Under the pieces are notes generated by a model, which was not told the DNA's origin, searched no databases, and saw only the letters and a program-made list of their open reading frames with translations. Position numbers and translations under genes: made by a program. Positions 7,311 to 33,224 of a DNA stretch of 63,627 nucleotides are shown here, piece after piece. Source of the stretch: Pyrinomonadaceae bacterium (GTDB lineage Bacteria; Acidobacteriota; Blastocatellia; Pyrinomonadales; Pyrinomonadaceae); the NCBI GenBank assembly GCA_035646955.1, contig DASROI010000030.1, positions 1 to 63,627 on the forward strand, given 5' to 3'. Each line of letters starts with the position of its first letter. Within the stretch, counting starts at the first letter, position 1.

Positions 7311-7521
7311 ATTCGCTCTCCTAACTGACGTCAAAAACAGAGTCCGGCACAATGTGTCACAAGAGCTAACGCGTAAATTGACTGAAAAAAGGGCCGGTCC
7401 CCGCAATACCTGACAAGAACAATCATCCACAGATTTTCGCTGATTCTGCAGATTTCTTCTGAGAAAGCACGCCACTCGAGTTTTCTAAGAAAAACTCTGT
7501 GTAATCGTCGTCATCGGTGGA

Positions 7522-8094
7522 TTACTCCGCGGCACCGTACTTTAGATGGGCCACCTTCGCCTGTCCCTTCGCATAGACTGTGACAATAAACAAATCGTCG
7601 TACGTCTTCTCATCGATCGTTTTGATTGTTCCACCGCCCAGCGCCTTGATCAAATCCGGAATCGAGTTAGTGTGCCCAACAAGGAGCACACTTTGACCCG
7701 TATGCTGTAGAAGCTTTGCAGCACTTTCGTTAGTTGATTCATCGGAGATCCGCCTCGGATTAGCAGGATCAGATTTAAGAACGAACGGTGTGGTGGTAGC
7801 ACCTGACTGTTTTGCCACCAGCTCGCCAGTCAGTTTTGTGCGTTGAAATTGAGAAGTATAGACAGCCTTAATATCGGAAGCCGACAAGAGTCGGGTAAGT
7901 TCTGCAGCTCGGCGGATTCCCTTTTCACTCAAAGGTGGATCCTGTCGAGGCTCATCAGCCTTCTCGGCGTGACGAATAATAAATATCGTTATCGGTGAAA
8001 ACTGCTCCTGCGCCACGACTCGGTCGGCACCGGCCACGGAGGCGCTAAGAAAACCAAGCATCAGCAAAACCAGGCGAAACGAAAACTTATCCAT
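7522..8094 (-). CDS. histidine phosphatase superfamily protein (SixA/PGAM-like), secreted
   Basis: 190 aa with a signal peptide. It has the catalytic IFIIRHAEK motif and LLVGHTNSIP. Confidence 0.8.
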   Translation of the reverse strand: MDKFSFRLVLLMLGFLSASVAGADRVVAQEQFSPITIFIIRHAEKADEPRQDPPLSEKGIRRAAELTRLLSASDIKAVYTSQFQRTKLTGELVAKQSGATTTPFVLKSDPANPRRISDESTNESAAKLLQHTGQSVLLVGHTNSIPDLIKALGGGTIKTIDEKTYDDLFIVTVYAKGQAKVAHLKYGAAE

Positions 8095-8110
8095 CAGTTA
8101 TTCCTCTCGT

Positions 8111-8704
8111 CTAACGTTTTAAGGCTAGCGCTGCCCCTAACACAGTCAGGGACATCACAAGTATCAAACCAACAAAACCAATGGCTTTGTCTACGCTCTT
8201 AAATCCTGTCCATTGCAAGTAATGGATCTTATAGAGTAGATCGATCCATGCGGTGTCGGTGCCTTGTTGCTGCAGCGTTAAGGTGGTCCAATCAAGACTT
8301 ACTTGTACGCCTGTGCTGGTTCGAGCAGTCGAGTCCGAGATACTAACAATCTCGCCATAACGGCTAGGATTCGCACTAAAGGCGTCTTTAAGAAGCAATC
8401 TTATTTCGGCTTCAGACGGTTTTGCTCTGGGCTGCTTTGTAACTGGATCGAGTTGCTGCCAATCTGCTTGCGTTCGGACCAACAAGTGATCTCCCAGGAC
8501 AGTTCTTAAATATCTCAACTCGCTCCACGCCGGATCGACAGTCAAAGTCGGCGAGCTGGCCAGACTATATGTCTTTACTTTTAGAATCTCATAAGCACCC
8601 ACGTAGCCAGGTTTTATGAAGAAGACGAAGCCAGTCAGAGCCCAACCGAAAAAAGGCAGGATAAGGATCACCCCAATGACTCTGTGAATCTTTCGTGTCT
8701 TCAC
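8111..8704 (-). CDS. PepSY-like two-TM membrane protein
   Basis: 197 aa. KIHRVIGVILILPFFGWALTGF at the N-terminus and a C-terminal TM helix resemble PepSY-associated TM proteins. The family call is from memory. Confidence 0.55.
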   Translation of the reverse strand: MKTRKIHRVIGVILILPFFGWALTGFVFFIKPGYVGAYEILKVKTYSLASSPTLTVDPAWSELRYLRTVLGDHLLVRTQADWQQLDPVTKQPRAKPSEAEIRLLLKDAFSANPSRYGEIVSISDSTARTSTGVQVSLDWTTLTLQQQGTDTAWIDLLYKIHYLQWTGFKSVDKAIGFVGLILVMSLTVLGAALALKR

Positions 8705-14106: not shown

Positions 14107-14739
14107 TTAATTTCGTCGCCCGGCGCGTTGCGACTTCAAGATTTTGCGCAACTTCATCCGCGCTTTATGTAACTGCGATTTCGAAGTGCCAACCGCCACA
14201 TTCAGCATCCTGGCAATCTCTTCGTGTTCGTGTCCTTCGACGTCGTGCAATACGAACACTGTTCGATAACCCGCCGGCAATTGCTTCAGCGCATTGTCCA
14301 GAGCAATTCGATCCAACACCGGCATCGCATTGGGATTCTCGGTCCCGCGAACTACCTGAACGGGCGTATCACCTTCTTCAGTTGTCCGCTCGAGTTTGAC
14401 GCTCTTCTTTCGAAAGTGCATCAAACACTGGTTCACCGTCAGCCGGTGTAACCAGGTTGTGAACGCTGACTCGCCTCTGAAACTTCCAATCTTGCGGAAG
14501 AGTTGTATGAAAGCTTCCTGCGCAAGATCTTCGGCCTCGGCGGCGTTTTGAGTCATGCGAAGACATAATGAATACACGCGGCGATTGTGTCGCTCATACA
14601 GCTGTTCGAAGGCTGCCATGTCGCCCTGGCCGGCCGCGATCGCTAACGCATGATCTGAAAGTGGCGCCGGTTTCGCAGTCGACTTCGCCGCAACATTTGT
14701 CGGCCATACTGGGAAGACTTCGGTATTTGTCATGGCCAC
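14107..14739 (-). CDS. ECF-type RNA polymerase sigma factor
   Basis: 210 aa. Region 2: [44 protein letters not shown]. Region 4: [41 protein letters not shown]. Confidence 0.9.
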
Positions 14740-19032: not shown

Positions 19033-19884
19033 ATGACCGATTCTGAAGACTCGACAAGCAAGTTAAAAGACGAGGCAGCGAAAAGACGCCGGGAGGAAGC
19101 TCTACCCGAGCGCCTCTTGCGACGCGTACTGGAAGGAATGGGCGACATTGTCGATCGCAAATTCGGTCGCACGGTCGAGCCAAAGACGGGGCTAACAACC
19201 TCGAAACTAATCGAGCGCATGAAGAAGTTAATAGACGAGCGTGCTCGAGACGAAGGGTCGAAGGGTCGTATAGCGCCCCATCACCTGGTTCTGAAAGTCG
19301 AATGGGGTACTCACTCAGAAGCGCCACCTGAAATCTTGAACGATCTAAAGAATGAGGTTCTTGCTGCGGCAATTGACCACATCAACGACCATCGATACCG
19401 GACGCTTGCACCGATAAGTGTGGAGGCTGAGGTTGACATCTTTACGACCGGTATTTCGGTAGATCCTAACTTTGGCGAGTTTGAAGAGGACCTGCGACGA
19501 CAAGACGAAGAAAAGCGGGCGGCCAAAGCAGGCATCGTAATACCATCGGCAGCACCACCAATGCCCGATCTCCAGGTGATAGCCCGGATTAACCAGGCGA
19601 ATAGCTCGCGCGAAGTGGCTTTAAGCTTTAAGCCGGGCGGGAGACGACTTAATGTCGGTCGAGCCTCCGACAATGAATTGCGTATTATTGACGCGAGCGT
19701 TTCCAAGATTCATGCGGCACTTCTGATGACATCAGAGGGAACTCTGTTGGTGGCTGATACCGGCTCAACGAATGGAACTTTTATCAACGGTCGCCGGATA
19801 GCTTATGGCGAGTCTCGGCTTATCGAAGATGGGGACGTTGTAGGATTCGGTGACGTTGAAGTAAGACTCAGAAAGTCTGAGTAA
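19033..19884 (+). CDS. FHA-domain protein, FhaA-like (N-terminal DUF3662-type domain plus C-terminal FHA)
   Basis: 283 aa. FHA: GRASDNELRIIDASVSKIHAALLMTSEGTLLVADTGSTNGTFINGRRI. The N-terminal APHHLVLKVEWG...EVLAAAIDHINDHRY resembles the FhaA N-domain. Confidence 0.85.
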   Translation: MTDSEDSTSKLKDEAAKRRREEALPERLLRRVLEGMGDIVDRKFGRTVEPKTGLTTSKLIERMKKLIDERARDEGSKGRIAPHHLVLKVEWGTHSEAPPEILNDLKNEVLAAAIDHINDHRYRTLAPISVEAEVDIFTTGISVDPNFGEFEEDLRRQDEEKRAAKAGIVIPSAAPPMPDLQVIARINQANSSREVALSFKPGGRRLNVGRASDNELRIIDASVSKIHAALLMTSEGTLLVADTGSTNGTFINGRRIAYGESRLIEDGDVVGFGDVEVRLRKSE

Positions 19885-19932
19885 TCAGTTCTTACAGGCT
19901 TGACTAAGGAGATCCGCTCGAACAGAAACTAA

Positions 19933-21813
19933 ATGAACCCTGTTCTTACAGCCCTGTTATTGTTTCAATCTCCCTCCCCTTCTCCCACGCCTGTCGTCGA
20001 CGCGCTCGAAAGGATGCCGGCGCTCTTCACCATCATTTACGTCGCCGGATTTGGTTTCATAATCCTACTGCTGTTCCTCAGTTTACTTCGCAGCAGAAAG
20101 CGACCACCAGCAACGGCCGCAATACCAGCTGACTTACCAAAAGAAGTTAGAAAGCGACTTGGCTCTGCTTCAACTAATCGAGGACTTCGCGCCCTGCGTT
20201 GGCTGTTCATCCTTCTTGCATTTGGACTTTTTGGATTTCACATCTACTGGGCTCGCTACGCAGCCGAAGATAACGAGACGTTTCAACAGCTGAGTTACAA
20301 AGACCTGCGGATGCGCCGGCTGTCCGAATCGACGCTGCGCGGATGGATCCTTGATAGAAGCGGCCGGTTGGACCAACCTCTCGCTTATTACAAACGCGAC
20401 TCGACGGGTGAAATTCAGCGTGAGTACCCGATGGATAAAGCGATGGCCCACTTGTTTGGCTCTGACCGCGGAGATCCGGGCCTGGAGCGCGCGTTGTTCG
20501 GAACCCAAAGTGGAGCGCTTCCGGAAGCATGGGACGTGGTCCGGCGGCGTACTCAGGAGTTTAAAGGAAATCAGGATGTTCGACTCACGATCGATCGCAA
20601 CCTGCAACAGGCGGCGGTGGACCAGCTAAAAGGAAAACACGGTGCAGTTGTAGTGTTGAATCCTCAAACGGGTGAAGTACTTGCACTCTACAGCGAACCT
20701 TCATACAGCCTGAGTGAAGTGTCTGACGAGGCGACATGGATTCGATTGGAGTCGAACGAGAGGGACAAGCCACTTGTGAGTAGAGCGCTTGGAGCTTACT
20801 ACATTCCTGGTTCGACCTTTAAAACAGTAACCATGACGGCTGCCTTCCTTGCGGGCGAACAGGACACGGAGTTCACCTGCAGCGGAGGTGGTTATTACGC
20901 AGCACCGGGCGCCAACGTTATCTACGACGATGGCGGTGCGGGTGAAGTACACGGCCGGATCGGCATAGACCAAGCGTACGAGGTTTCGTGCAACCAGTAC
21001 TTCGCACAAATGGGCGTCAAACTTGGACCAGAACGGCTTAAGCGTGCCGCACAATTACTGGGAATCGGTACCTATGACACGCCGGTTGAAGCCCTACGAG
21101 GACGCAAACAACCGGAGATCTGGAATGGGAGCACCGACGCCGTCAAGCGAGCTCTGGCTCCTCGTGAAGCCACGATAGTAACTGGTAAACAAGTGACTCG
21201 CTACGACCTTGCTCTCATGGGTTATGGCCAGGGCTACGCCGGTCAGATGACGCCGCTGCAGATGTCGTTAGCCGCTGCCGCGATCGGAAATACTGAGGGC
21301 AAGCTGATGAAACCAAAGATTGAATACAAACTTCCTCCGCAAGTATTCAATCAGGTTATGCCTGCGGCGACAGCCGAAAAGCTACGTTCCATCATGGGAC
21401 TGGTAACCGGTGGTCCAAGCGGAACAGCCCGCGGAGTCTTTGCACCGGTTAAAGCGGCAGGAATAAATACGGGAGGTAAAACAGGAACCGCTCAAAAAGT
21501 TGTCCCGGTTTATGATCCAAAGACCGGCGAACCGAAGCGGCAACATAAAGTTGAACGTGATAATCGGGGCAACATCATCCGTGAATACGACGAGGTCGTG
21601 ATGGACGAGGAGCATCCGCGCATTGATGGTTGGTTTTTGTGCATCGCACCATTGGAAAAACCTCAGTTGGCCATTGCGGTGATTGTTGAGGGAGGCGGAT
21701 ATGGCTCCAGATCGGCAGCGCCAATTGCTGCCGCACTCGTCCTAAAGGCCCGGGACCTCGGTTATTTCAGCGGCGTAAAACCGGCAACACCGGCCAAGAA
21801 AACAGTTAAATGA
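19933..21813 (+). CDS. class B penicillin-binding protein (PBP2/PbpA-type transpeptidase)
   Basis: 626 aa. Active-site triad motifs are STFK (GSTFKTVT), SCN (EVSCNQYF) and KTG (GGKTGTAQ). There are two hydrophobic segments at the N-terminus. Confidence 0.9.
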   Translation: MNPVLTALLLFQSPSPSPTPVVDALERMPALFTIIYVAGFGFIILLLFLSLLRSRKRPPATAAIPADLPKEVRKRLGSASTNRGLRALRWLFILLAFGLFGFHIYWARYAAEDNETFQQLSYKDLRMRRLSESTLRGWILDRSGRLDQPLAYYKRDSTGEIQREYPMDKAMAHLFGSDRGDPGLERALFGTQSGALPEAWDVVRRRTQEFKGNQDVRLTIDRNLQQAAVDQLKGKHGAVVVLNPQTGEVLALYSEPSYSLSEVSDEATWIRLESNERDKPLVSRALGAYYIPGSTFKTVTMTAAFLAGEQDTEFTCSGGGYYAAPGANVIYDDGGAGEVHGRIGIDQAYEVSCNQYFAQMGVKLGPERLKRAAQLLGIGTYDTPVEALRGRKQPEIWNGSTDAVKRALAPREATIVTGKQVTRYDLALMGYGQGYAGQMTPLQMSLAAAAIGNTEGKLMKPKIEYKLPPQVFNQVMPAATAEKLRSIMGLVTGGPSGTARGVFAPVKAAGINTGGKTGTAQKVVPVYDPKTGEPKRQHKVERDNRGNIIREYDEVVMDEEHPRIDGWFLCIAPLEKPQLAIAVIVEGGGYGSRSAAPIAAALVLKARDLGYFSGVKPATPAKKTVK

Positions 21814-23504
21814 AGAATCGCGCGTCATCGCACCTACTCATAATCTTCATCATTATCGGCCTTGAAATAGTCGGCTATCTAGGCGTTCACCGCGCCGCCG
21901 CTTTAAGAGGATATGAGACCTCTGTGATTGGCGGAGTTCGCGACCTGTTGATGTTTATTCCGCTGATCATTCTTGTCCTCTGGCTTTCACGGAGCAAACA
22001 CTTCATTGGAAACTGGGTATTGTTTACGACGGCGATTCTGCTCTTCTCGTTCGGGATGCTGGTCCAATATCGCCTGTACAGTGATCCGGAATACAACGCG
22101 CGAAACAAGGCTGCCGCTCGCGAGGAAAAAATGCAGGCGCTCCGGACTCGCTACATCATGGAAAACTATGATCCCGTCAAGAAGCAGATGATGGGATTAC
22201 CCCCAACTCCGGCGCAACCAATCCAGGTAAGTCAGATTCCACAGAAGCCCTCGAATTACTCGCTGTGGAATGCATTGACATCAAGCTACACATGGATTCC
22301 GATCTTTTCATTCCTGGCGCTGGCAATAGCTTATTCGTTGTGTTCACGCGATGGATTCTTGCTTTGGCTGCAACGTAACAGTTTTATCATCGTGCTCTTC
22401 ACGCTCGTTCCACTTGCAGGAGCGGTCGTAACTTCGAGCGCAGGTAAAGCACTCGGAAACATGACGCCCTGGGAGCCGTCAAAGATTCCTTTTCTCATTG
22501 GCTTCGCTGGAATACTTACAGCTCGTTATAAAGATTTAGCTGAGACGTACTGGGGAATCCCAAGGGCAAAGGACATCATTCCGTTACTAGTGATGGCTGC
22601 CATGCCATTCGTCCCGTTCTTCGCGCTGAAAGACTTTGGACAGATGCTCATCTTCAGCGGTGCTTACACAACACTTTATCTCGTAGCCGTCCGCCGTTGG
22701 CCACAGCTTCTGTTATTCGTGGGATCGATCGTGGTGGTCATTTCAATCCTTGTAGTTGGCGCCTTACCTCGCGATATCCAGGAGAAAGTGCCGCTGCTGC
22801 CAACTCTCGCTCGTCCGATAAGTGCGGCTCTGCCCTCTCGTATTCAACAACGATTTCACCTCTGGCTCGATGGATTCGATCCACCTTCACCTGAAGTCTC
22901 ATGGTGGAAGAAAGACTATGAGGAAGCACTACAGAGCGATCCACGTCTGAAAGAGCTGGCGGAACAGAGTCCGGCGATGCAGAAAGCAGTCAACATCGAC
23001 ATTTGGTTTGATAAGCTGGCCTTTCAACCGGCCCAGGCCGTGTTTGGTATTGCCGCGGGTCGCACCAGTGGACGCGGATTTGGGTTAGGTTTCCCGGAAG
23101 TGATTCCGATCGCCGACTCTGACTACGTTTATGCCGCGATCGCCGAAGAGACGGGACTATTGGGTGGAGCCATGGTGATACTAGCGGTGATCATTTTCGT
23201 GATCGCTGGAGTTCGCACTTCACTCGAGTCGCGTGATATGTTTACCAAACTTTGCGCGGCTGGTCTCACAGCATTCGTAGGTTTTCAGGCCTTAGTCAAC
23301 ATTGGTGGCATTCTTCGCGCACTGCCGATGACAGGAATCACACTTCCCTTTGTCAGTCACGGCGGATTTAGTTTGATTACTAGTTTCGCAATGTTAGGTA
23401 TGTTGTTGGCATTCTCGAACCGAAATGCTCGTGACCGCGTGATCGCCGAAATACCGGCGGTTAAAAGCTCTTCTTCTCCCCTTAAGCTGGAGGCAGTGCA
23501 ATGA
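21810..23504 (+). CDS. SEDS-family peptidoglycan polymerase (RodA/FtsW)
   Basis: 564 aa, polytopic. Motifs: IADSDYVYAAIAEETGLLGG and LPMTGITLPFVSHGGFSL. Its start shares an ATGA overlap with the PBP stop. Confidence 0.9.
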   Translation: MKNRASSHLLIIFIIIGLEIVGYLGVHRAAALRGYETSVIGGVRDLLMFIPLIILVLWLSRSKHFIGNWVLFTTAILLFSFGMLVQYRLYSDPEYNARNKAAAREEKMQALRTRYIMENYDPVKKQMMGLPPTPAQPIQVSQIPQKPSNYSLWNALTSSYTWIPIFSFLALAIAYSLCSRDGFLLWLQRNSFIIVLFTLVPLAGAVVTSSAGKALGNMTPWEPSKIPFLIGFAGILTARYKDLAETYWGIPRAKDIIPLLVMAAMPFVPFFALKDFGQMLIFSGAYTTLYLVAVRRWPQLLLFVGSIVVVISILVVGALPRDIQEKVPLLPTLARPISAALPSRIQQRFHLWLDGFDPPSPEVSWWKKDYEEALQSDPRLKELAEQSPAMQKAVNIDIWFDKLAFQPAQAVFGIAAGRTSGRGFGLGFPEVIPIADSDYVYAAIAEETGLLGGAMVILAVIIFVIAGVRTSLESRDMFTKLCAAGLTAFVGFQALVNIGGILRALPMTGITLPFVSHGGFSLITSFAMLGMLLAFSNRNARDRVIAEIPAVKSSSSPLKLEAVQ

Positions 23505-24997
23505 CCGAAAACACAAAGGCCTTCACCATCCAGTCCTCGTCGCTTTCAGACCGAGGGTTGAATGAGCGTCGACCTTTAAATGAAGACGCTTACCTGGCGG
23601 ATGCCCAGCGATCGATTTTTGCAGTGGCTGACGGTGTAGGTGGTGCCGAAGCCGGCGAAGTTGCTTCGCAAACAGCTATCGAAGTGCTCGATGAGGCTTT
23701 CAGGCACCAAACTGAAGGTGCAGATATCGAAGATTTAATGGAGCTCGCGATCCAAAGAGCCAACGCGTCTATTCATCAATTGGCCCAGGAGCACCAGCGG
23801 TTCTCAATGATGGCGACGACAGTCGTCGCACTACATCTAAAGGATAACATCGCCACGTTTGGACATGTTGGCGACTCACGTCTTTACCGGCTAACTCCTG
23901 ATGGAGAGCTTCACCGCGAAACACAAGATCACTCAATCGTCGAAGAAGAAGTACGCGCCGGGAGAATGACGCCCGAACAAGCCGCAAACCACCCTAGTAA
24001 AAACGTGATCAGCAGGGCTCTCGGAGCAGAACCGGTGGTCGAAGTTGATATGAAGACGATGGAGGTGGAAGAAGGTACTCAGTTTCTATTGTGCACCGAC
24101 GGGATCACTCGGCACGTGTCTGACGGTGAGATTCGCCGCTTGCTGGTTATTCACGAAGACCTTGAAGCAGTTTGTAATGAACTAAAGGAGCGTTGTTATG
24201 AACGAGGCGCTGAGGACAATCTGACGGTAGTCGTCGTCAGGGTTGGACCATACATTTCTGCCGACCAACGCTCTGAAGATCTTGAGCCGACTATCTCTCC
24301 GGAAAGCGAAGCAATGTATGCACAGAAGGATGGCCATCAGACGATGATGGCTACTGCAAATCCTCCCGGATTAGTGCCGGCGTCGCGCATTGCCTTTCCA
24401 GGTCCACCTGCTGACGGCGCCGCCGTTCCGGTCGAAAGATTAAACGTCGCGCCGGAACAAGCCCACCAGAAAAGTAATGGTACGGCCAAGCTCTTTGGTG
24501 TAGTGGTTGTTCTCGCTCTCCTGGCTGCCGCTTTCGTAGCAGGAGCACGTTTGAAGGACCGCATCCCTCTTTTTGCTGAAGCAGCGAAACCTACTCCTAC
24601 TCCGACTCCCGTGCCGCAGGTAGAAGAGCCATTTGTCCAATTCGAACGGGCAAGAAGACAAGTGGACTTGGATCCGCGAGCCTGGCTGGCAAACGACGTC
24701 GGCAAGGAACTCTTGAAGTCATCCGTTCAAGGTCCCCTCGACTCCCCCAACCCTGAATTTCTCTATTTGTACGGTCGGGCAAACTTACTGACTGGAAACC
24801 CTGACGAAGCGTCAAAGGCTTTTGAAGCCGCGATCGCAAAGTCTGATCAAAATCCATCGCCGGCAAATGCCACAGTGAAGAAGGATGCAACACTCGCGAT
24901 TGCCGCAGTCAGTTTGAAGACCTTCCGAGAGCGACAAAAGGCACTCGCCCACTACGACGAATTAACAAAGCCACCAGCTAACGCCAACGCCCCCTAA
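23501..24997 (+). CDS. PP2C-family Ser/Thr phosphatase with TM helix and extracytoplasmic helical tail
   Basis: 498 aa with ADGVGGAEAGEVAS, GDSRLYRL, CTDGITRHV, EDNLTVVVV and TM helix LFGVVVVLALLAAAFVAGA. Its start shares an ATGA overlap with the rodA stop. Confidence 0.9.
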   Translation: MTENTKAFTIQSSSLSDRGLNERRPLNEDAYLADAQRSIFAVADGVGGAEAGEVASQTAIEVLDEAFRHQTEGADIEDLMELAIQRANASIHQLAQEHQRFSMMATTVVALHLKDNIATFGHVGDSRLYRLTPDGELHRETQDHSIVEEEVRAGRMTPEQAANHPSKNVISRALGAEPVVEVDMKTMEVEEGTQFLLCTDGITRHVSDGEIRRLLVIHEDLEAVCNELKERCYERGAEDNLTVVVVRVGPYISADQRSEDLEPTISPESEAMYAQKDGHQTMMATANPPGLVPASRIAFPGPPADGAAVPVERLNVAPEQAHQKSNGTAKLFGVVVVLALLAAAFVAGARLKDRIPLFAEAAKPTPTPTPVPQVEEPFVQFERARRQVDLDPRAWLANDVGKELLKSSVQGPLDSPNPEFLYLYGRANLLTGNPDEASKAFEAAIAKSDQNPSPANATVKKDATLAIAAVSLKTFRERQKALAHYDELTKPPANANAP

Positions 24998-25054
24998 AGA
25001 TCGTTCGCTGATCTGTTTTTTTTGCATCTAAGCGATGCAAAATCGGGGCGGACT

Positions 25055-26593
25055 ATGTCAGAACTTAAACTTCAACACAGCAGACTCGACGGCCGGTACG
25101 ACATCCTTGAATGTCTTGGCCGTGGCAGTTACGCCGAGATCTACGTCGCGACGGACAACGCTGCTGTTGAAGGAGCGCCGCGAACGGTCGTTATCAAGGC
25201 ACTGAATCTAAACCTGCAAGAAGAGACGGATGCTGAACTCGAACGGACCCTTGTCGCCAACTTCCAGAACGAGGCCGTTGCACTTGATCGAGTTCGCCAC
25301 CCGAATGTCATCAACCGGTTAGGTCATGGCACCGCAATCGATCTGGGCGGCACGACTTTCCACTACATCGTCCTTGAATATCTGCCGGGTGGTGATCTTG
25401 CCGCCCTCACTCGCGGACGACCTTTGAATATTCAGAAAGCTGTTTCATATCTTGAGCAGGTCTGTTCGGGTCTGGCACACGCCCACAAGTGCGGCGTAAT
25501 TCATCGCGACATCAAACCGCAGAACCTGTTACTTACGGAAGATAAGCAGACTGTCAAGATTGCGGACTTCGGAGTCGCCAGGATCGACGCCAGCGACGGC
25601 GCGATAACGCGGGTAGGAACCAATATCTACTCCGCGCCGGAACACAACCCACTCGTCCAAACAGGTCAACTCTATACTTCGGGGCTACCGTCGGTACGAG
25701 ATCACCTGACTCCCGCTGCCGACATCTACTCGCTTGCCAAGACAACCTACACTTTGCTTGCTGGGGAGTCGCCCAGGCGTTTTGCCCAACATTCAATTAC
25801 TGAACTGCCGCTCACGATGGCGCAGGCCGACTGGTCACAACCGGTTTTGCGCGTCCTCAGAAAAGCGACACAGAGTAGGCCAGAAGAGAGATATCAGACG
25901 GTTGAACAATTTTGGGACGACTTTGCTGAAGCTACTTTACCACCGACTAGACCTTTGAAGATGCCCGAGATTGAAAATGAGATGCGGCGGAAACCGAGCG
26001 CTGACTTGTCGATCGAACCAGACGAGTTTACAGAAGCAGCGCCACCTCGCCCTCATTTCGCCCAGCCGGAACGAGTGCCGGTGCTGGACGCAGAACCACA
26101 AAGACGTCCGCGTATTGTTGTGCCTATCCAGCTTGAAAATCGGCGCGAAATGGACCATTTGGCTCGTCGAGCTGAGACTCCGGCTGCTGCAAACAAAAGG
26201 AACCAACGGCAATCTCTTGATAGTGTTATGCCGCGCGGACGGACTCGTCGGGCGGTAGTCGCCGCAGGGTTAATTCTGGCTTTCTCGGGAATGTTGCTGG
26301 CGACGCACAAGTACGTAACGTCACATTGGAACCCGCTTAGCAGTGTTCCGCAGTTAAGCGACACTTTCATAATTGGCCGGGAAGGTGTTACAACGACTGA
26401 TGTTAATTTACGCCCTGTGGCAAATACGCAGAATGCTCCGATTGGCATGGCCGAGTTTGGGTCGAAGGTAAAAGTGCTCAGCGCTGACAATAACTGGTAC
26501 GAGGTCCAAGTGTTGGAACACGCTCGGCCCAAGTCCGATCCCTATTCATCCGATCGTGGCTGGGTCAATAAGCGCTTTGTAAAGTTTGATTGA
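25055..26593 (+). CDS. Hanks-type Ser/Thr protein kinase with TM helix and C-terminal SH3b-like domain
   Basis: The ORF track starts at the TTG at 25022; I prefer the ATG at 25055. Motifs: GRGSYAEIY, VVIKAL, HRDIKPQNLL, DFGVAR, SAPEH, and TM helix VVAAGLILAFSGMLLA. The C-terminal VNLRP...WYEVQV...GWVNKRFV resembles SH3b. Confidence 0.9.
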   Translation: MSELKLQHSRLDGRYDILECLGRGSYAEIYVATDNAAVEGAPRTVVIKALNLNLQEETDAELERTLVANFQNEAVALDRVRHPNVINRLGHGTAIDLGGTTFHYIVLEYLPGGDLAALTRGRPLNIQKAVSYLEQVCSGLAHAHKCGVIHRDIKPQNLLLTEDKQTVKIADFGVARIDASDGAITRVGTNIYSAPEHNPLVQTGQLYTSGLPSVRDHLTPAADIYSLAKTTYTLLAGESPRRFAQHSITELPLTMAQADWSQPVLRVLRKATQSRPEERYQTVEQFWDDFAEATLPPTRPLKMPEIENEMRRKPSADLSIEPDEFTEAAPPRPHFAQPERVPVLDAEPQRRPRIVVPIQLENRREMDHLARRAETPAAANKRNQRQSLDSVMPRGRTRRAVVAAGLILAFSGMLLATHKYVTSHWNPLSSVPQLSDTFIIGREGVTTTDVNLRPVANTQNAPIGMAEFGSKVKVLSADNNWYEVQVLEHARPKSDPYSSDRGWVNKRFVKFD

Positions 26594-26632
26594 GTGGGTA
26601 CAAATTAGAGTAACTCCACGTGGAGGCACGGC

Positions 26633-27490
26633 TTGGGACTGCTTGACTCGATAAGAAAATGGATAGATGGCGAAACTGGCGAAGATCTACTCGAGGCCGC
26701 TGGTGAGCACGCAAAGCCACGGCGGGTTTGGGAAGAGTTCTTAGTCAAGATCGCACGTGAGGTTGAGGCGGCCATGCAGCGGGAGATGTTCACTCCCCCG
26801 GGTGGTCCAACCTATATCCCTCGTGAGTACATTGTCTACTTGAGTTCGGAAGACGACAAAGATTGGCAAGGCGATAAGCGCCGTGGTTTGGAACAGGGTC
26901 TCTTTCATGTGTTGTCGGAACGCGCGCGAGAGTTAAGCGGGTCGACTCAATTGGCGGTTAAGTCGTTTGCGGTTGAATTAAGAGTTGATGGCACGCTCAA
27001 CAAAGGTGAGTTTCGCGTCCAGGCGGTATGGGATGAAACTGAGAGTGGACACACGATGGTCACACCTCGAGTCGATCCATCGCGTTCTGCCCAACCGTTC
27101 AACCCGAACGAGACTATCAGAGAGATTGCTACTGAGACCGGTGAAACTGAACAAACCGTCGTCCGGCCAAAGGCTCTCCCGCTTTTCTCTGTAGAGGTTT
27201 GGCGCAGCGGTGTTCGCGAGGCTGTAGTCCCCATCATGAAGAGTGAGATCACAATCGGTAGAGGATCGCGAAGTGTTTCAGTTGATCTACCGCTCAAAGG
27301 TGATCCTGAGGTCAGTCGAGTACACGCTGTATTGTCGCGCGATAACGAAGGTAGGTTCTGGCTGGTGGCGAAAGGACGTAACCCGACTACAGTTAATGGG
27401 CGTGAGTTACCGCGTGAGGAAGCGACTGAAGTTGCACCTGATCAGCGAATATCGATCTGCATGTTTGTCCTTCGGATTCAACCCGCATAG
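26633..27490 (+). CDS. FHA-domain protein, second FhaA-like copy
   Basis: 285 aa with a TTG start preceded by GGAGG at 7-nt spacing. FHA: GRGSRSVSVDLPLKGDPEVSRVHAVLSRDNEGRFWLVAKGRNPTTVNGREL. The N-terminal IPREYIVYLSSEDD...GLFHVLSERARE is of FhaA N-domain type. Confidence 0.85.
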   Translation: MGLLDSIRKWIDGETGEDLLEAAGEHAKPRRVWEEFLVKIAREVEAAMQREMFTPPGGPTYIPREYIVYLSSEDDKDWQGDKRRGLEQGLFHVLSERARELSGSTQLAVKSFAVELRVDGTLNKGEFRVQAVWDETESGHTMVTPRVDPSRSAQPFNPNETIREIATETGETEQTVVRPKALPLFSVEVWRSGVREAVVPIMKSEITIGRGSRSVSVDLPLKGDPEVSRVHAVLSRDNEGRFWLVAKGRNPTTVNGRELPREEATEVAPDQRISICMFVLRIQPA

Positions 27491-27515: not shown

Positions 27516-28778
27516 TCAACCAGCACTCTCGACTTTTACTTTCATCTCAGAGTCGAGGTCATCAATCAAATCTTTCAGAAGCAACGGAGCTTCGTCAGGA
27601 TTGATATAACCCTTGCCGAGCATCTTCATGATCCGGCGCTCTTTCGCTTCGCCGGTTACTTCCTTCAACATCGCCCTGGCAAAGGCGGTAACAACCTTAC
27701 CGTCAAATTGCTTTCCACTGTTTTGCCTGAGGTCGCGCACCACATCCGGAAACGAGCGACGCCTCCGGTAAGGACGATCCGTTGTCATCGCATCAAATGA
27801 ATCAGCGAGCGAAACGATCTTGGCGCCAAGCGGAATCTGTTCGTCCGTTAGACCATCGGGATAGCCCCGACCATCAAGGCGTTCATGGTGATACTTAGCC
27901 ATCAGCGGAATGTCTGCGTAAGGATGATTGATCGGCCTTAGAATTTCGTATCCAGCGGCAGGATGGCGATTCAACTCGCTCGACTGTTTGGCGTCGATTT
28001 GATAAGGCGCGTTGATTATGTCGCGTTCAACTATCAACTTGCCAACATCATGAAGGTATCCAGCTATCTGAATTCCCTCGACCTCTTCTTCGCTCCAACC
28101 CAACTCTCTCGCGATGATTTCACTGTAGCGCCCTACTCGTTCGGAGTGTCCCTGGGTGTACTTGTCTTTGATATCTATGGCAGCGGCAAACGCCTTCACG
28201 GTGTCGCGATAGATGGCCCTCAAGTCTTGGTAAAGGCGTAAATTCTCTTCTGCTCGTTGGGCCAATTGTTCCATAAGCCGGTGAGTATGAATCCCAACGC
28301 CTATATGACGGACCATAGCGTGAATCGTGTCGAAGTCTTCGGGCGAGAATCCTTCGCCGCTGGCTTTACCACCAAGCAGGACAAATCCGGTCGTCTCGTT
28401 GCGAACAATCATGGGAATCACGAGTTCGATTCCCTCCTCGGTAAGACGGTCACGGTGTCGCTTAATAAAACTATTACTTCCCTCGATGTCTTTGACGCTC
28501 AAAGCGCAGTTATCTTCGATCAGAAATGCCGCTCTTTCTGTCTCATCGATGGACAACTCTTTGGCCACCGCATCATCGAGACCCCAGATCGCAACGCACT
28601 GAAGTGAATCACTATGACCACACTCGACCACGGCGCCGCGGCGGAGTGCAAGCGTGCCCAGGAGCAAGTGCATCGAGGTGCGCACCATTGCTGCAAAGTC
28701 ACCGGTATTGGCGACTTCCTGGCCCAGATCTGCTAGCGCACCGAATGTATGGATCAGTTTTTGAGTCGATGGCTCCAT
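27516..28778 (-). CDS. GAF-HD-GYP protein (predicted c-di-GMP phosphodiesterase)
   Basis: 420 aa. N-terminal GAF: IPMIVRNETTGFVLLGG. HD-GYP: QGHSERV, YLHDVGK, HHERLDGRGYPDGL, DSFDAMTTDRPYR. Confidence 0.9.
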   Translation of the reverse strand: MEPSTQKLIHTFGALADLGQEVANTGDFAAMVRTSMHLLLGTLALRRGAVVECGHSDSLQCVAIWGLDDAVAKELSIDETERAAFLIEDNCALSVKDIEGSNSFIKRHRDRLTEEGIELVIPMIVRNETTGFVLLGGKASGEGFSPEDFDTIHAMVRHIGVGIHTHRLMEQLAQRAEENLRLYQDLRAIYRDTVKAFAAAIDIKDKYTQGHSERVGRYSEIIARELGWSEEEVEGIQIAGYLHDVGKLIVERDIINAPYQIDAKQSSELNRHPAAGYEILRPINHPYADIPLMAKYHHERLDGRGYPDGLTDEQIPLGAKIVSLADSFDAMTTDRPYRRRRSFPDVVRDLRQNSGKQFDGKVVTAFARAMLKEVTGEAKERRIMKMLGKGYINPDEAPLLLKDLIDDLDSEMKVKVESAG

Positions 28779-28782
28779 CTAA

Positions 28783-29250
28783 TCAATGGGCTACTGTTTT
28801 TGCGTCAAAACCTGAGAGATTCGAGAGGGCTTCTTGCTCGTTCTTTGCGAGCACTACGTGTCGGGTCAACCCTAACATTTCAAAGAGTTGAATGGTTTGA
28901 ATGTTTACATCGGAAAAAACTATGCGGGCGCCATTTTTCTCGGCGACGTTAATTATACCCAGGAGGATAGAGATACCAATGCTATTGACGAGTTTAGTGT
29001 CGCTGAAGTCAATCACGAGAGCACGACAACCAGAATCCAACTGACGGCGGCACTCGCGCTCAATCTTTTCGCCCGTTAGCTTGTTGAGGTAGTCACTGGC
29101 ATAAATCACGGCCGTAGTGCCAACACAATGCGAACGTACTGCACCACTTATTATCTCCACCAGACAGTCCTCTCTGCCCTGAAAATAAAATGATCGTTGT
29201 AAGACGTTGTAACTTTTGGATGTGATCTTCAAGTAGAGCGGAGACCACAT
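28783..29250 (-). CDS. STAS-domain protein (anti-sigma-factor antagonist, SpoIIAA/RsbV-like)
   Basis: 155 aa. ALVIDFSDTKLVNSIGISILLG aligns with the vlDlsxvxfiDSsGl motif, and the phosphorylatable Ser is conserved (N-S-I-G). The gene starts 10 nt after the upstream stop and ends 4 nt before the downstream start. Confidence 0.8.
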   Translation of the reverse strand: MWSPLYLKITSKSYNVLQRSFYFQGREDCLVEIISGAVRSHCVGTTAVIYASDYLNKLTGEKIERECRRQLDSGCRALVIDFSDTKLVNSIGISILLGIINVAEKNGARIVFSDVNIQTIQLFEMLGLTRHVVLAKNEQEALSNLSGFDAKTVAH

Positions 29251-29260
29251 CGAATCCCTG

Positions 29261-31534
29261 TTAAGAAGTGCGACTACGGAGGTACTTTGTCATTCGGAGG
29301 CTAGTACCTTCATCAACTCGTTCGAACTCGACTTCATCCATGAGTGTCCGGATCAGTCTAAGTCCCCAACCGCGTCGTTCTTCTGCGCCCTCGTCGGGTT
29401 CTGGCTTAGTCGTAATCGCGCCGTTAGTGCCGATATTGGTTGGCACAATGCCGCGGCTCGAAATTGTGACGACTAATCTATCACTTTCGACCCGAAAACG
29501 CTGATAAATTTTTCTTTCCGGGCTAAAACTGTGCTCCGCAGCGTTCAGACAAGCCTCCACGATCGCCGTTTTAATCTGATTGATCGCTTCGGAACCAAAG
29601 TCCAGCCTCCGGGCTACCTGCTCAACAGCGTTTGCCGCAATGAGTTCATTCTCGTCGCCCATTGGTACGATCATCACGAATTCATCGGTATCTTCAGGGA
29701 CGCTGGCAGGCTGATTTTCACCCAAAAGTGAGCTAAGTAGCTCAATTTGAGACAAACTCGAGCTGAAACCGTGACGGCGCTCAATTTCTTGGGCAGCCTC
29801 GTCCGAGAAACCCTCTCTTGAGATTAGCCACAGCTGAGAACGCCTGAAACTCAGCCGGCTCCCTACGGACTCCAACCGCTCCAGCCATAACTGAGCGACA
29901 TCCAGCGCCACCTCAAGCTTCGAGTCAATTTCCGCTACCAGCCAGATAACTTCATTAGCGTCGGTGTAGATTGCTTCGCCAAAAGAATGAGCGATGACGC
30001 ACCTGTCATCATCACAAACCTGGCGCATGTCGCTGTCAAACGCTACACAACTTGCAACGTGAATTGTCTGCGGCAGTTTTACGAACTCTGTCTCACTCTC
30101 AAGTTCTGCCGGTAGTTTTTCGCGGTCCAGCCCTCTGTACTTCTGGTTAAAGCCACCGTTGTTCAGCAGGACACTCGGTATACGCTGGCAATCAAATCGC
30201 GTCATCAGGTTACGCAGATCAAGACGGCCCATACGGCGATAATGACGAGCCATCGTATGAGGAGCGCGCTTTAGGGAATCAGTCAACGCATCGGCCGCAA
30301 CCAGGGCTCGCGACTCATTGTTGACGTCCAGCCTGTACCGTACTTTTAAATAGTCGTGCCATGGTTGTGGTCCAGAACCCGTCTCTATCGTGCCTTCGTT
30401 CCAGTTGATAAACTCCTGAACATGCAAGCGATGCAGGATGTCCTCGAGTTCTTCGGCATCAAGTCGAAGGTGTCTGCGCCAGGTTTCGAAGGAAGACGCC
30501 TGGTCCTGGCTGGCAATTGCTTCCCACAACAAACGGATCAAACCCTGGCGGGTATCGAGACGAGGCGCAGCTTCCTCGAGTAGATCGCTGAAGTGCCGAT
30601 GAAGATGGCCACCTAAGAGTTCGTCGACATAAAGCCGTTCACAATCAAGGTAAGAAATCAGTGCTACATTTCTTTCGCGCGCAGCTTGCAACACGGTGCT
30701 AATGAAGAAAGGACTTCCCGCAAACTGCTGGACCAGTAGATCTCTAACCTCGGTGCTTATTGCGACTCGTTGGCGACTTGCTACTTGCTCAACAAGTAAG
30801 CTCGCCTGTTCGGATTCAAGCTGTTCAAGGCGAAGGATATCCAGCTTTTCAAAATCGACTTCGGCCTGGTGAGCGGCGGAGAGAATTTGTCGCCTTAGAC
30901 CAGCAACAACGAATGAGAAACCGCCGCGAGCGAAGACGCGCATTACCTCCGTTCCCAACACGACAGCACCGTTCAGGTACTCAGCCAGCTGTGCTCCATC
31001 CAATATAACGAACGGCCGCCCTCTGGCTGCGGGCACACGTTGCGGGGCCCCAAGGCAGAATCGGACCAGGGCGCGATCATCGTTACTAAACCGCAACCGT
31101 CCATAAGAGCTAACCATCTGTTGGATCCACGGGAGGTCTGCAGGCGGAGCGAGATCCACCAGGTCGTCCAACGTTAGAGACGCATAACACAACGATGGTT
31201 CGTTACGACGGAAAGCAATGTACTGGTGTAGAAATGCGTTTAGAAACTCTATAGCAGTACTGACTGCGGTCGTGTCGTTTCTCGTGAAGGCAAAATATAT
31301 TGGAATAACTTCAGAACGAAGATTGAAGATCTGATCAAAGCTTTGACGCAGAAGTTCAGAAACTCCCGCGGAAGGAGCCATCAGCACGAGCAGACCGCGC
31401 TGGGACCTTTCAATGGCGGTTTGCTCGATCAGTTTTCTTAATTCGGTCGTGCGCCCGATGAAACCTTCCCGGGCAACCCGAGCCAGAATCCGGCTACTTG
31501 GTTCATTCGGGTTAGGCTTCATTTGAGCTCGCAC
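29261..31534 (-). CDS. 757-aa fusion: degenerate AAA_16/STAND-like NTPase N-domain, unassigned middle region, and C-terminal RsbW/SpoIIAB-type HATPase kinase domain
   Basis: The N-terminal FIGRTTELRKLIE...GLLVLMAPSAGVSELL aligns to FVGRxxEL...GExGIGKSxL, with the Walker A Lys replaced by Val. Walker-B-like: PFVILDGAQ. The C-terminal 140 aa carry EACLNAAEHS (N box), GWGLRLIR (G2) and DEGTSLRMTKYL. The start overlaps the upstream GGDEF gene by 23 nt. Confidence 0.75.
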   Translation of the reverse strand: MRAQMKPNPNEPSSRILARVAREGFIGRTTELRKLIEQTAIERSQRGLLVLMAPSAGVSELLRQSFDQIFNLRSEVIPIYFAFTRNDTTAVSTAIEFLNAFLHQYIAFRRNEPSLCYASLTLDDLVDLAPPADLPWIQQMVSSYGRLRFSNDDRALVRFCLGAPQRVPAARGRPFVILDGAQLAEYLNGAVVLGTEVMRVFARGGFSFVVAGLRRQILSAAHQAEVDFEKLDILRLEQLESEQASLLVEQVASRQRVAISTEVRDLLVQQFAGSPFFISTVLQAARERNVALISYLDCERLYVDELLGGHLHRHFSDLLEEAAPRLDTRQGLIRLLWEAIASQDQASSFETWRRHLRLDAEELEDILHRLHVQEFINWNEGTIETGSGPQPWHDYLKVRYRLDVNNESRALVAADALTDSLKRAPHTMARHYRRMGRLDLRNLMTRFDCQRIPSVLLNNGGFNQKYRGLDREKLPAELESETEFVKLPQTIHVASCVAFDSDMRQVCDDDRCVIAHSFGEAIYTDANEVIWLVAEIDSKLEVALDVAQLWLERLESVGSRLSFRRSQLWLISREGFSDEAAQEIERRHGFSSSLSQIELLSSLLGENQPASVPEDTDEFVMIVPMGDENELIAANAVEQVARRLDFGSEAINQIKTAIVEACLNAAEHSFSPERKIYQRFRVESDRLVVTISSRGIVPTNIGTNGAITTKPEPDEGAEERRGWGLRLIRTLMDEVEFERVDEGTSLRMTKYLRSRTS

Positions 31535-33224
31535 CTTCGACTAAGTCCTGGTAGAACTCAATGCGATCCTTTCCCAAACTCTTTGCTCGATAAAGCGCTC
31601 GGTCCGCTGCCGCAATAACCGTTTCGGCCGAGTTGACGAGTGACGAGAAACTCGACACTCCGATACTGATGGTAACGTGGCCCTGTGGTTGCGACTTGCC
31701 GTGGGGAAAGTGTGTAGTAGCAACACGCTGGCGAATACGGTCAGCGATCACAGCGGCTTCTGTCGCAGTTGTTTGCGGCAAAAGGATAGAAAACTCTTCG
31801 CCTCCGTAACGGGAGGCAACGTCCGCGGATCTGAGAGCCCCTTTTAGACAGTGTGCCGTGATTTGCAGAGCCAAATCTCCAGCTTGATGTCCATTGTTGT
31901 CGTTGTATGCTTTGAAATCGTCAATGTCGATCATCAAAAAGCACATCGGGTCTTCGTTACGCTTTGATCGATTGACTTCTTCCGTTAAGCGTTCTTCGAG
32001 ATATCTTCGATTCGGCAGACCCGTTAAAGGGTCTGTGATCGACATCAACTGGAAAGCAGTTGCGCGCTCTTGCCACTCGGCTTTTTCGAGGGCCAGTGCT
32101 ACCTGTGGTCGAATAATCTCCAGCAGACTAAGGTCGACCTCGTCATAGTTTCGACCGCCGACTTTATCGGCAATGTTCAAGACGCCAATTTTTCGCCCGC
32201 CTATCGTGATCGGAAAACTGATAAACGACTTCGTCTTGTAGCGACGCTCTGCGGGTGCAGGTGTAATGGCTGAACTCTCGACGTCATCGATGATCAACGC
32301 TTTTCCCGATTCAATGACCGAACCTGAAACACCCTCTCCAACTCGCATGTGCCCGACGGAACCCGGATCAACACTCATTCCAATGGCAGCTTTCAAAACA
32401 AGTTTGTCAGCACCCTCATCGAAGACCATCAAAGACGCGCGTTCTGAATTGAGTAACTCCCTGGAGTTGCTGATGATCGAGTAATAAGTCTTGGTTGGAT
32501 CGTCGGAGCTGATGCGTTGGAGAAACCGCTGGAGAGTATCTGTAAAGCGCGAACTATGTTCGAGTTCTCCCCTCAGGCGTTCAATCTCTAATTCCAGGCT
32601 CCGATCCGTAACTGCAGGAGCAGCGGTGTCGATGCGCGCTATTGCGTCAGTTGTTGGACCACTTGCGCCATTGGCCTGAACCAGAGAGTGGGTTGAAGGC
32701 CCAGGTGCTGCTCCATACCTGACAGCGCCCTTTCCTACTCGTTCAGCCAGGTCTCGCAATCGATGTCGTTCCGCAAAGATTGCATTCGAGAAAAAAGAGT
32801 CAGACTCGAGTTCTTTCAATTCACCGCTGCGATATCGCTCTACCAACAGTTGGTAATCAGCTCCGTTGACGAATGCTCTTCCACCAATTACCGCCAGCGC
32901 TCTGCCCTCGATTTGAACCGGTTGAGCAAAACACATGAGGCCTGCATGGCATTTGTATTCGATGGTTGAGTTTGCCTGGGTGGCTTTACGGTGAGCTTCC
33001 CCGCAAAAGGGATCACAACGTTTCTTGTGTGTATTAGAAGATTGAAAGGCTGAGCAGACAGAGTTGTTGTTGGACACAACGAGGGCTGGCGGCTGAGGGC
33101 CGCTCACCAAAAGCATCGACAGGCCGAAAGAATTTGCGAGACCGTCCTGGAGTTCTGGCCATCCAGTTGGGGCATCCTCACGGTTTTCCTGTCCCCTTGA
33201 GGAACTGGGGGAGTTATTTGACAT
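31512..33224 (-). CDS. PocR-like sensor, coiled coil, GAF and GGDEF diguanylate cyclase
   Basis: 570 aa. PocR-type Cys/His pattern: CSAFQSSNTHKKRCDPFC...YKCHAGLMCFAQPVQIEGRALAVIGG. GAF: FISFPITIGGRKIGVLNIAD. GGDEF: active site RYGGEEF with an RSAD I-site five residues upstream. Confidence 0.88.
   Translation of the reverse strand: MSNNSPSSSRGQENREDAPTGWPELQDGLANSFGLSMLLVSGPQPPALVVSNNNSVCSAFQSSNTHKKRCDPFCGEAHRKATQANSTIEYKCHAGLMCFAQPVQIEGRALAVIGGRAFVNGADYQLLVERYRSGELKELESDSFFSNAIFAERHRLRDLAERVGKGAVRYGAAPGPSTHSLVQANGASGPTTDAIARIDTAAPAVTDRSLELEIERLRGELEHSSRFTDTLQRFLQRISSDDPTKTYYSIISNSRELLNSERASLMVFDEGADKLVLKAAIGMSVDPGSVGHMRVGEGVSGSVIESGKALIIDDVESSAITPAPAERRYKTKSFISFPITIGGRKIGVLNIADKVGGRNYDEVDLSLLEIIRPQVALALEKAEWQERATAFQLMSITDPLTGLPNRRYLEERLTEEVNRSKRNEDPMCFLMIDIDDFKAYNDNNGHQAGDLALQITAHCLKGALRSADVASRYGGEEFSILLPQTTATEAAVIADRIRQRVATTHFPHGKSQPQGHVTISIGVSSFSSLVNSAETVIAAADRALYRAKSLGKDRIEFYQDLVEGASSNEA

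Follow-up and report, generated by a model that had tools for sequence, protein, structure and literature searches.

We analysed a 63,627-nucleotide stretch of DNA from a Pyrinomonadaceae bacterium (contig DASROI010000030.1 of assembly GCA_035646955.1, hereafter the window), which carries a minus-strand gene joining a STAND-type nucleotide-binding module, degenerate in both of its Walker motifs, to a C-terminal domain related to the anti-sigma kinases RsbW and SpoIIAB. The fusion gene stands second in a compact run of four minus-strand genes, the others encoding a GGDEF diguanylate cyclase, a STAS (anti-sigma-antagonist-type) protein and an HD-GYP phosphodiesterase. Our preferred reading, to which we give a probability of roughly 0.55 by analogy with known systems, is that the fusion protein belongs to a partner-switching module that tunes cyclic di-GMP (c-di-GMP), with the STAND pseudo-switch as its input. 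The domain identities, the state of their motifs, the conservation of the operon and the presence in the same operon of a sister clade with an intact Walker A lysine (the Lys-intact clade) are established. The component modules are of known kinds and their combination is previously undescribed: we found no description of a fusion of STAND/AAA_16 with HATPase_c_2 (RsbW), or of the four-gene cassette, in the searchable literature.

The gene lies in an uninterrupted open reading frame (ORF) at 29261 to 31534, whose mechanical start, a GTG at 31534, would give a protein of 757 amino acids. Four codons further in, an ATG at 31522 gives a 753-amino-acid product identical to a database protein (P0001), this ATG is likely the translation start and residues are numbered from it throughout. 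Between it and the stop codon of the GGDEF gene upstream there is an 11-nucleotide overlap. Databases label the protein merely as "ATP-binding protein" or "serine/threonine-protein kinase RsbW". The peptide strings picked out in a preliminary description of this DNA, which was made from the letters alone (FIGRTTELRKLIE, LMAPSAGVSELL, VILDGA, VIWLVAEIDSK, EACLNAAEHS and GWGLRLIR), are all found in the ORF.

The N-terminal STAND module

The first 606 residues were searched against Pfam at E <= 10, both undivided and cut into three; only AAA_35 was returned, at E = 0.084 over residues 231-317, and direct assignment of the N-terminus failed. A Pfam assignment was possible only because relatives in which the Walker A lysine is intact match AAA_16 at 41.7 and 35.8 bits (gathering cut-off 32.6) and ATPase_2 at 37.8 bits (cut-off 33.2), the latter spanning positions 1-223 of 225; these relatives also match AAA_22 and nSTAND1, and several closer homologues carry precomputed AAA_16 (PF13191), nSTAND1 or NPHP3_N matches.

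The fold was modelled with AlphaFold2 (AF2). An earlier model of the full-length protein from 30 close sequences was poor (predicted local distance difference test, pLDDT, 62; predicted template modelling score, pTM, 0.34), gave weak Foldseek matches to AAA+ proteins, and was superseded by a model of residues 1-606 built on a 110-sequence alignment (pLDDT 90.9, pTM 0.77). The best match of this second model in the PDB, as ranked by Foldseek, is the Walker-type ATPase PABY2304 of P. abyssi (2qen, E = 2e-7, template modelling score on the target 0.62 over 401 columns). Further matches, at E values of ~1e-6 to 1e-4, are to the plant NLR resistosomes NRC4 and NRC3, archaeal Cdc6/Orc1, CED-4 and Apaf-1, with RuvB and clamp-loader subunits ranking below these. 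By model and motif, residues ~20-430 are a nucleotide-binding domain (NBD), helical domain and winged helix of the STAND / Orc-Cdc6 class, and the earlier call of the N-terminus as AAA_16/STAND is borne out by the P-loop fold of the model, by Foldseek and by the relatives that reach the Pfam thresholds.

The modelled NBD consists of a strand at 43-48, a loop, a helix at 55-68 and strands at 72-78, 169-175, 203-209 and 227-232. Its N-terminal helix carries FIGRTTEL, the local form of FxGRxxEL, and aligns with the AAA_16-type pattern FxGRxxEL...GxxxxGK[ST]E. After the fourth strand comes an Arg pair (R210-R211, in GLRR), of which the sensor-I arginine R211 is retained by 82/89 representatives and by 85/85 close orthologues (here and below, counts out of 89 refer to an alignment of 89 diverse full-length representatives, and counts out of 85 to close orthologous loci). 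In the helical domain, a GxP-like motif, G269-S-P271 in QQFAGSPFFIS, is moderately conserved (G269 in 53/89 and P271 in 48/89), and residues 372-381 form the wing hairpin of the winged helix.

A P-loop that has lost its lysine

In the preliminary description the P-loop was read as M-A-P-S-A-G-V-S, without the first Gly or the Lys, and the Walker B position as VILDGA instead of hhhhDD/E. Both readings hold for the window protein, and the further question of whether the Lys-less P-loop is conserved can be answered from the orthologues: the lysine is missing from all 85 close orthologues (Val in 80, Cys in 2, Leu in 2 and Ile in 1) and from 79 of the 89 representatives, which have Ala, Ser, Thr, Leu, Val, Cys or Ile in its place. 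It is present in 10/89, which read GAPRVGKSE, GQPQVGKTE, GSRGIGKSE and similar. At Walker B, D175 is near-invariant (88/89) and the second acid is Asp in 37/89. In 110 sequences, with identities as low as 34%, P50, G53, E56, L57, L58, R59, Q60, D175, R210 and R211 never vary, and S55 is close to invariant. Judged from this pattern of conservation, the dead P-loop is a selected, derived state and not one-off decay.

The sister clade comes from soil metagenomes (loci L087-L142, for example L087 at 5965-8331), and 38 of its 39 loci keep GxxxxGK[ST] intact. Because this clade shares the operon, the dead P-loop is derived from a working switch and is not a founding feature of the family. One member inside the Lys-intact clade, L093 (321-2591), reads GAPRAGATE and lost its lysine independently, so the Walker A lysine has been lost at least twice. 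Walker B in the Lys-intact clade is mostly hhhDN rather than hhhDD (31/39 loci), a sequence feature which hints that slow or absent hydrolysis is perhaps old in the family.

The C-terminal RsbW-like domain

Pfam (HATPase_c_2, E = 9.6e-20), sequence searches of the PDB (B. subtilis RsbW, 6m36, E = 2.3e-9, with SpoIIAB, 1til and 1l0o, also matched) and Foldseek (E = 2.5e-5) agree in placing the last ~140 residues with RsbW and SpoIIAB, as had been proposed. The best NCBIfam matches are RsbW at 58.9 bits and SpoIIAB at 50.7 bits, and since these scores fall far under the equivalog cut-offs of 145 and 135 bits the domain is called RsbW-like here and not an RsbW orthologue.

E656 of the N-box is found in 89/89 representatives, N660 in 86/89 and G718/G720 in 86-87/89, and both H664 and RRGWGL, the G2 box and ATP lid, are near-invariant. 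The G1 box is deviant. Where RsbW has ADEGDS and SpoIIAB RDEGVG, the window protein reads S-S-R-G-I-V, with Ser at the position of the Asp, and among the 89 representatives this position is Asn in 72, Ser in 17 and Asp in none. By analogy with kinases that share the departure, it need not preclude catalysis: VanS, an active kinase that binds ATP weakly, has Asn in its G1 box and is missing the second Gly as well, and in ThkA a hydrogen bond between Asn and adenine was observed (10.1101/2022.12.12.520123). The same Asp-to-Asn change occurs in a sporulation kinase of B. anthracis which, in the citation of it given there, depends on GTP (Scaramozzino 2009, via 10.1101/2022.12.12.520123). VanS and the B. 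anthracis kinase thus resemble the fusion protein in a replaced DxGxG Asp and a missing second Gly, with kinase activity still possible, but both are histidine kinases, whereas the domain here is of the RsbW Ser kinase type and carries, in the window lineage, Ser and not Asn. A Ser here is, as far as we are aware, without precedent.

The region between the two modules

About 350 residues behind the N-terminal module had been left unassigned in the preliminary description. Part of this gap is now filled by the helical domain, the winged helix and the two long linker helices (Table 1), and an alpha/beta domain at 436-600 still has no family match. It is built, in the model, of strands at 485-491, 508-514, 524-532, 562-568 and 586-589 and helices at 540-556, 574-582 and 590-599; it carries the motifs W-x-AAE-I-D-S-K-L-E, W-x-x-R-L-E and WLI-x-x-EGFS, and it occupies the position at which STAND proteins have their sensor domain. 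A profile of residues 434-604 gave 0 PDB sequence matches at E <= 10, and Pfam searches with the alpha/beta domain of 36 diverse members gave scattered chance matches only.

The sequence of this domain co-varies with the state of the P-loop. Lys-less clades have W-x-AAE-[IV]-[DE]-SKLE...FWCDRLE, and in the Lys-intact clade every one of the 39 loci reads WLIALINSKEP, which places Leu at 531 and Asn at 533 (L531/N533).

Set against its relatives, the fusion protein clearly descends from both the RsbW and the STAND lines, yet misses defining features of each. It shares with RsbW/SpoIIAB the HATPase_c_2 fold, the N-box E-x-x-x-N-A-x-x-H, the G2 box R-x-G-x-G and an adjacent STAS antagonist. RsbW and SpoIIAB themselves are stand-alone proteins of ~140-160 amino acids whose G1 box reads DxGxG and whose operons include a cognate sigma factor, whereas here the domain sits behind 600 residues, has its altered G1 box, lies in an operon with no sigma gene and misses the equivalog cut-offs. 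With the STAND AAA_16/ATPase_2 proteins (2qen, Apaf-1, CED-4, plant NLRs and Cdc6/Orc1) it shares the order of NBD, helical domain and winged helix, the FxGRxxEL helix, the sensor Arg and the GxP-like motif. It differs from them in the loss of the Walker A Lys and first Gly and of the second Walker B acid, in a C-terminal "sensor" that is a small alpha/beta domain and not a set of repeats, and in an effector that is a C-terminal GHKL kinase-like domain.

The fusion gene travels in a four-gene cassette

The full four-gene set is present in 69 of 86 close loci, most of the exceptions being contig ends, and the cyclase lies upstream of the fusion gene in 78 of the 79 close loci where this could be tested, as it also does in the Lys-intact clade. 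That clade has the same four-gene order in another chromosomal neighbourhood: its cassette has neither an Opp transporter nor the FhaA/PknB cluster beside it, and a divergent PknB-like gene lies upstream. Because the order is kept despite the different surroundings, the cassette travels as a unit. From their motifs (Table 1), both the cyclase and the phosphodiesterase look catalytically competent.

The mechanical ORF of the STAS gene (28783-29250) gives 155 amino acids and its orthologues have 118-126; the start is probably the GTG at 29160, where the orthologues begin, ~100 nucleotides from the stop codon of the fusion gene. The STAS protein carries an N-S-I-G motif (VNSIG) aligned with the phosphorylated Ser site of SpoIIAA/RsbV, and this Ser is invariant in 80 orthologues.

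A third arrangement is found in a P0160-like clade (L084, L085, L167 and L168, gene at 7001-~9200), which is Lys-less and has Asn at the G1 position. At the Opp-flanked site it keeps the cyclase and the fusion gene, but no STAS or HD-GYP gene adjoins them. Behind the fusion gene of L085 there is a Fic-domain gene instead, and in another P0160-like locus, L169, the cyclase neighbour is missing too. A scan of the window operon for promoters and terminators gave nothing informative.

Table 1. Coordinates of the four cassette genes and of the domains and motifs of the fusion protein in the window (AF2, AlphaFold2; residues numbered from the ATG at 31522)
Feature	Residues	Position	Strand	Description
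Gene 1, PocR-GAF-GGDEF diguanylate cyclase		31512..33224	minus	GGEEF active site, RxxD I-site
Gene 2, STAND-RsbW fusion	753 amino acids	29261..31522	minus	STAND-type pseudo-NTPase, helical domain, winged helix, alpha/beta domain, RsbW-like GHKL
Nucleotide-binding domain	~20-232	30827..31465	minus	P-loop NTPase fold; AF2, Foldseek, relatives' Pfam matches
Walker A remnant LMAPSAGVSE	47-56	31355..31384	minus	first Gly replaced by Met, Lys by Val
Walker B remnant VILDGA	171-176	30995..31012	minus	D175 kept, second acid is Gly
STAND-type sensor-I arginine (GLRR)	R210-R211	30890..30895	minus	end of strand after Walker B
Helical domain and winged helix	237-283 and 291-381	30380..30814	minus	AF2, Foldseek
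Two long linker helices	386-431	30230..30367	minus	highly conserved LKRAPxTMARHYR motif
Alpha/beta domain	436-600	29723..30217	minus	confident AF2 model
RsbW/SpoIIAB-like GHKL (HATPase_c_2) domain	613-753	29264..29686	minus	
N-box EACLNAAEH		29531-29557	minus	
Deviant G1 box SSRG		29450-29461	minus	
Gene 3, STAS (anti-sigma-antagonist-type) protein	~125 amino acids	28783..29160	minus	STAS Pfam E = 5.8e-11
Gene 4, GAF-HD-GYP c-di-GMP phosphodiesterase		27516..28778	minus	HD and GYP motifs intact

A proposed partner switch for c-di-GMP turnover

Three partner switches are known in which a diguanylate cyclase is controlled through a STAS or STAS-like protein, namely SiaABC/SiaD, HptB-HsbR-HsbA/HsbD and BgrSTUWV/BgrR (PMC8457831). 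In these systems the switch protein binds the cyclase while it is unphosphorylated; in SiaABCD, binding of SiaC in this state activates SiaD, which no longer happens once SiaB has phosphorylated SiaC (PMC8457831). The cassette resembles the Sia and Hsb systems of P. aeruginosa and the Bgr system of S. meliloti in that an RsbW-type kinase, a switch protein of STAS or STAS-like type that can be phosphorylated on Ser/Thr and a GGDEF cyclase are encoded together. It differs in that the kinase is the C-terminal domain of a 753-amino-acid STAND-type protein with a replaced G1-box Asp, that the cluster has no PP2C gene and that an HD-GYP phosphodiesterase is added; its interactions are predicted ones.

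A partner-switching role is reasonable because a STAS gene with an invariant phosphorylatable Ser lies directly downstream, and by analogy with these systems we infer the protein-protein interactions, the kinase activity and the direction of regulation that follow. The RsbW-like domain would bind the STAS protein and probably phosphorylate its conserved Ser, and the free or unphosphorylated STAS protein would bind and modulate the neighbouring cyclase, the phosphodiesterase or both, setting c-di-GMP levels. The N-terminal 600 residues, that is the NBD, the helical domain, the winged helix and the sensor-like alpha/beta domain, may gate the kinase domain or serve as its scaffold; the preliminary description had suggested the pseudo-NTPase as a possible sensory or oligomerisation input to the kinase. 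In the Lys-intact clade the STAND module is presumably a nucleotide-dependent switch. In the window lineage, where Walker A is without its Lys and Walker B without its second acid, it would no longer cycle by NTP hydrolysis and is most likely a fixed or ligand-held, non-hydrolysing scaffold, and its pocket is still under selection.

Three observations weigh against this partner-switching reading. Since the P0160-like clade lacks adjacent STAS and HD-GYP genes, the STAS protein cannot be the sole output route. No PP2C gene is found in the cassette in any clade, and all three precedent systems have one. With the adenine-binding Asp of the G1 box replaced, ordinary ATP-dependent kinase activity is not assured.

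Two phosphatase genes elsewhere in the window were considered. The PP2C gene at 23501-24997 was rejected as the phosphatase of the cassette: it is part of the FHA/PknB/FtsW cluster, and the flanks of the Lys-intact cassette showed no PP2C. A PAS-GAF-SpoIIE (PP2C) protein of 643 amino acids, a partner-switching phosphatase of the RsbU type, is encoded at 2749-4680 on the minus strand, ~25 kb from the operon, and is a candidate phosphatase for the STAS protein, although nothing links it to the operon.

Competing explanations

The fusion protein could instead be a double pseudo-enzyme scaffold with neither nucleotide turnover nor a phosphorylation cycle, an adaptor that holds the STAS protein, the cyclase or both until a ligand at the STAND pocket or the alpha/beta domain releases them. 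Such a scaffold would account for the losses in Walker A (the Lys) and Walker B (the second acid), for the absence of the G1-box Asp in all 89 representatives, for the lack of a cassette phosphatase gene in every clade and for the P0160-like clade, which keeps the cyclase and the fusion gene without an adjacent STAS gene. We nevertheless regard it as unlikely. The Glu, Asn and His of the N-box and the G2 box, which together make up the catalytic and Mg- and phosphate-binding parts, are almost invariant, as would not be expected of a pure binding module, and the Ser of the STAS protein is invariant across its 80 orthologues. Moreover, Asn in the G1 box is compatible with the kinase activity of VanS and, as far as the cited account of it goes, with the use of GTP by the B. 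anthracis kinase (10.1101/2022.12.12.520123).

Less probable again is a classical anti-sigma factor, in which the RsbW-like domain would sequester an unlinked sigma factor, the STAS protein would act as its antagonist and the c-di-GMP enzymes would be merely co-transcribed. The closest solved relatives of the domain, RsbW and SpoIIAB, are anti-sigma factors and their models are also its best NCBIfam matches, but the better of these scores is 58.9 bits against an equivalog cut-off of 145, the invariant neighbours are a cyclase and a phosphodiesterase, and no sigma factor gene occurs in the operon among ~170 loci. The sole sigma gene seen in the window is of the extracytoplasmic function (ECF) type and lies 14 kb off (Sigma70_r2 and r4_2 domains, 14107-14739, minus strand), no other being present among the scanned window ORFs of >=150 amino acids. 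RsbW-type factors are not known to act on the ECF class. The anti-sigma output that the preliminary description had implied is therefore probably wrong, given an operon in which there is no sigma gene and in which the fusion is consistently accompanied by a GGDEF cyclase and an HD-GYP phosphodiesterase, and the likely output is c-di-GMP turnover and not a sigma factor.

A more speculative idea, which we consider improbable to a slightly greater degree, is that the degenerate STAND pocket, the Asn/Ser GHKL pocket or both have been re-purposed for guanine nucleotides, either to sense GTP or c-di-GMP or to use GTP as phosphodonor, with feedback through the STAS protein on the cyclase and the phosphodiesterase. 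If this were true, the cassette would be a self-contained c-di-GMP homeostat on an NLR-like chassis.

The resemblance of the fold to the NBD, helical and winged-helix modules of NLRs, Apaf-1 and CED-4 also raises the very remote prospect of NLR-like defence, in which a STAND NTPase would act in anti-phage immunity through a nuclease effector of the PD-(D/E)xK type at 436-600. A D...DSK pattern around VIWLVAEIDSK had been noted earlier as weakly reminiscent of that fold; the modelled order of residues 467-568 (alpha-beta-beta-beta-alpha-beta) is compatible with a restriction-endonuclease-like core, and the D/E-S-K part of the pattern is conserved. The pattern as a whole is only half conserved, however: K535 is kept in 81/89 and S534 in 75/89, but D521, the candidate first acid, is Asp in 28/89. 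Neither Pfam nor the PDB sequences yielded a match to that fold or to any nuclease, the hint finds no support, and PADLOC models match none of the fusion, STAS and cyclase proteins. The P-loop, moreover, is dead, and the setting of the gene in Pyrinomonadaceae is a signalling operon that shows synteny and vertical conservation, not a defence island.

That the ORF is two genes wrongly merged in sequencing or assembly, or a pseudogene in decay, is refuted by 479 clusters at 50% identity, most with the full-length architecture at ~710-780 amino acids, by at least 569 matching stretches in species-representative genomes, by 439 confirmed stretches in metagenomes and by strong conservation over the entire length of the protein; a merger of two genes by sequencing error had been named in the preliminary description as something that would refute its reading.

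Range of the family

To obtain the clusters, 1.84 billion cluster representatives were searched exhaustively by phmmer with residues 1-606 as query; 479 clusters were matched at E <= 1e-3 and 342 at E <= 1e-10. The closest 80 of the genome stretches were listed, and these best 80 are all from Blastocatellia. Thirty cluster look-ups named Acidobacteriota exclusively, and every relative with a named organism is from this phylum, being assigned to Pyrinomonadaceae, Blastocatellia or Chloracidobacterium.

Blastocatellia, and the Pyrinomonadaceae among them, are abundant in soil, and very little work has been done on their signalling; for this group of Acidobacteriota, the cassette suggests a way of controlling c-di-GMP that has not been described. 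STAND/NLR-type switches and RsbW-STAS partner switches are each well studied separately, and their fusion represents a new wiring of the two. Hundreds of orthologues with a dead P-loop, together with a Lys-intact sister clade in the same operon, amount to a natural experiment: a comparison of live and dead P-loops could test what a STAND module becomes after NTP hydrolysis stops, a ligand-held scaffold or still a true switch. The Asn/Ser G1 box likewise raises the question of which nucleotide the RsbW-type kinase uses.

Other genes in the window

On the opposite strand, a cluster encoding an FHA protein, a penicillin-binding protein transpeptidase, FtsW, PP2C, PknB-SH3 and FhaA (19033-27490) adjoins the operon. 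This cluster is syntenic with the cassette in Pyrinomonadaceae and does not lie beside the Lys-intact cassette. A 756-amino-acid ORF at 55059-57329 on the plus strand was considered as a paralogue of the fusion gene on account of its similar size, it is unrelated and has no Pfam match. A second c-di-GMP turnover gene of the window, at 59743-62295 on the plus strand, encodes an 850-amino-acid hybrid protein with HD-GYP, GAF and GGDEF domains.

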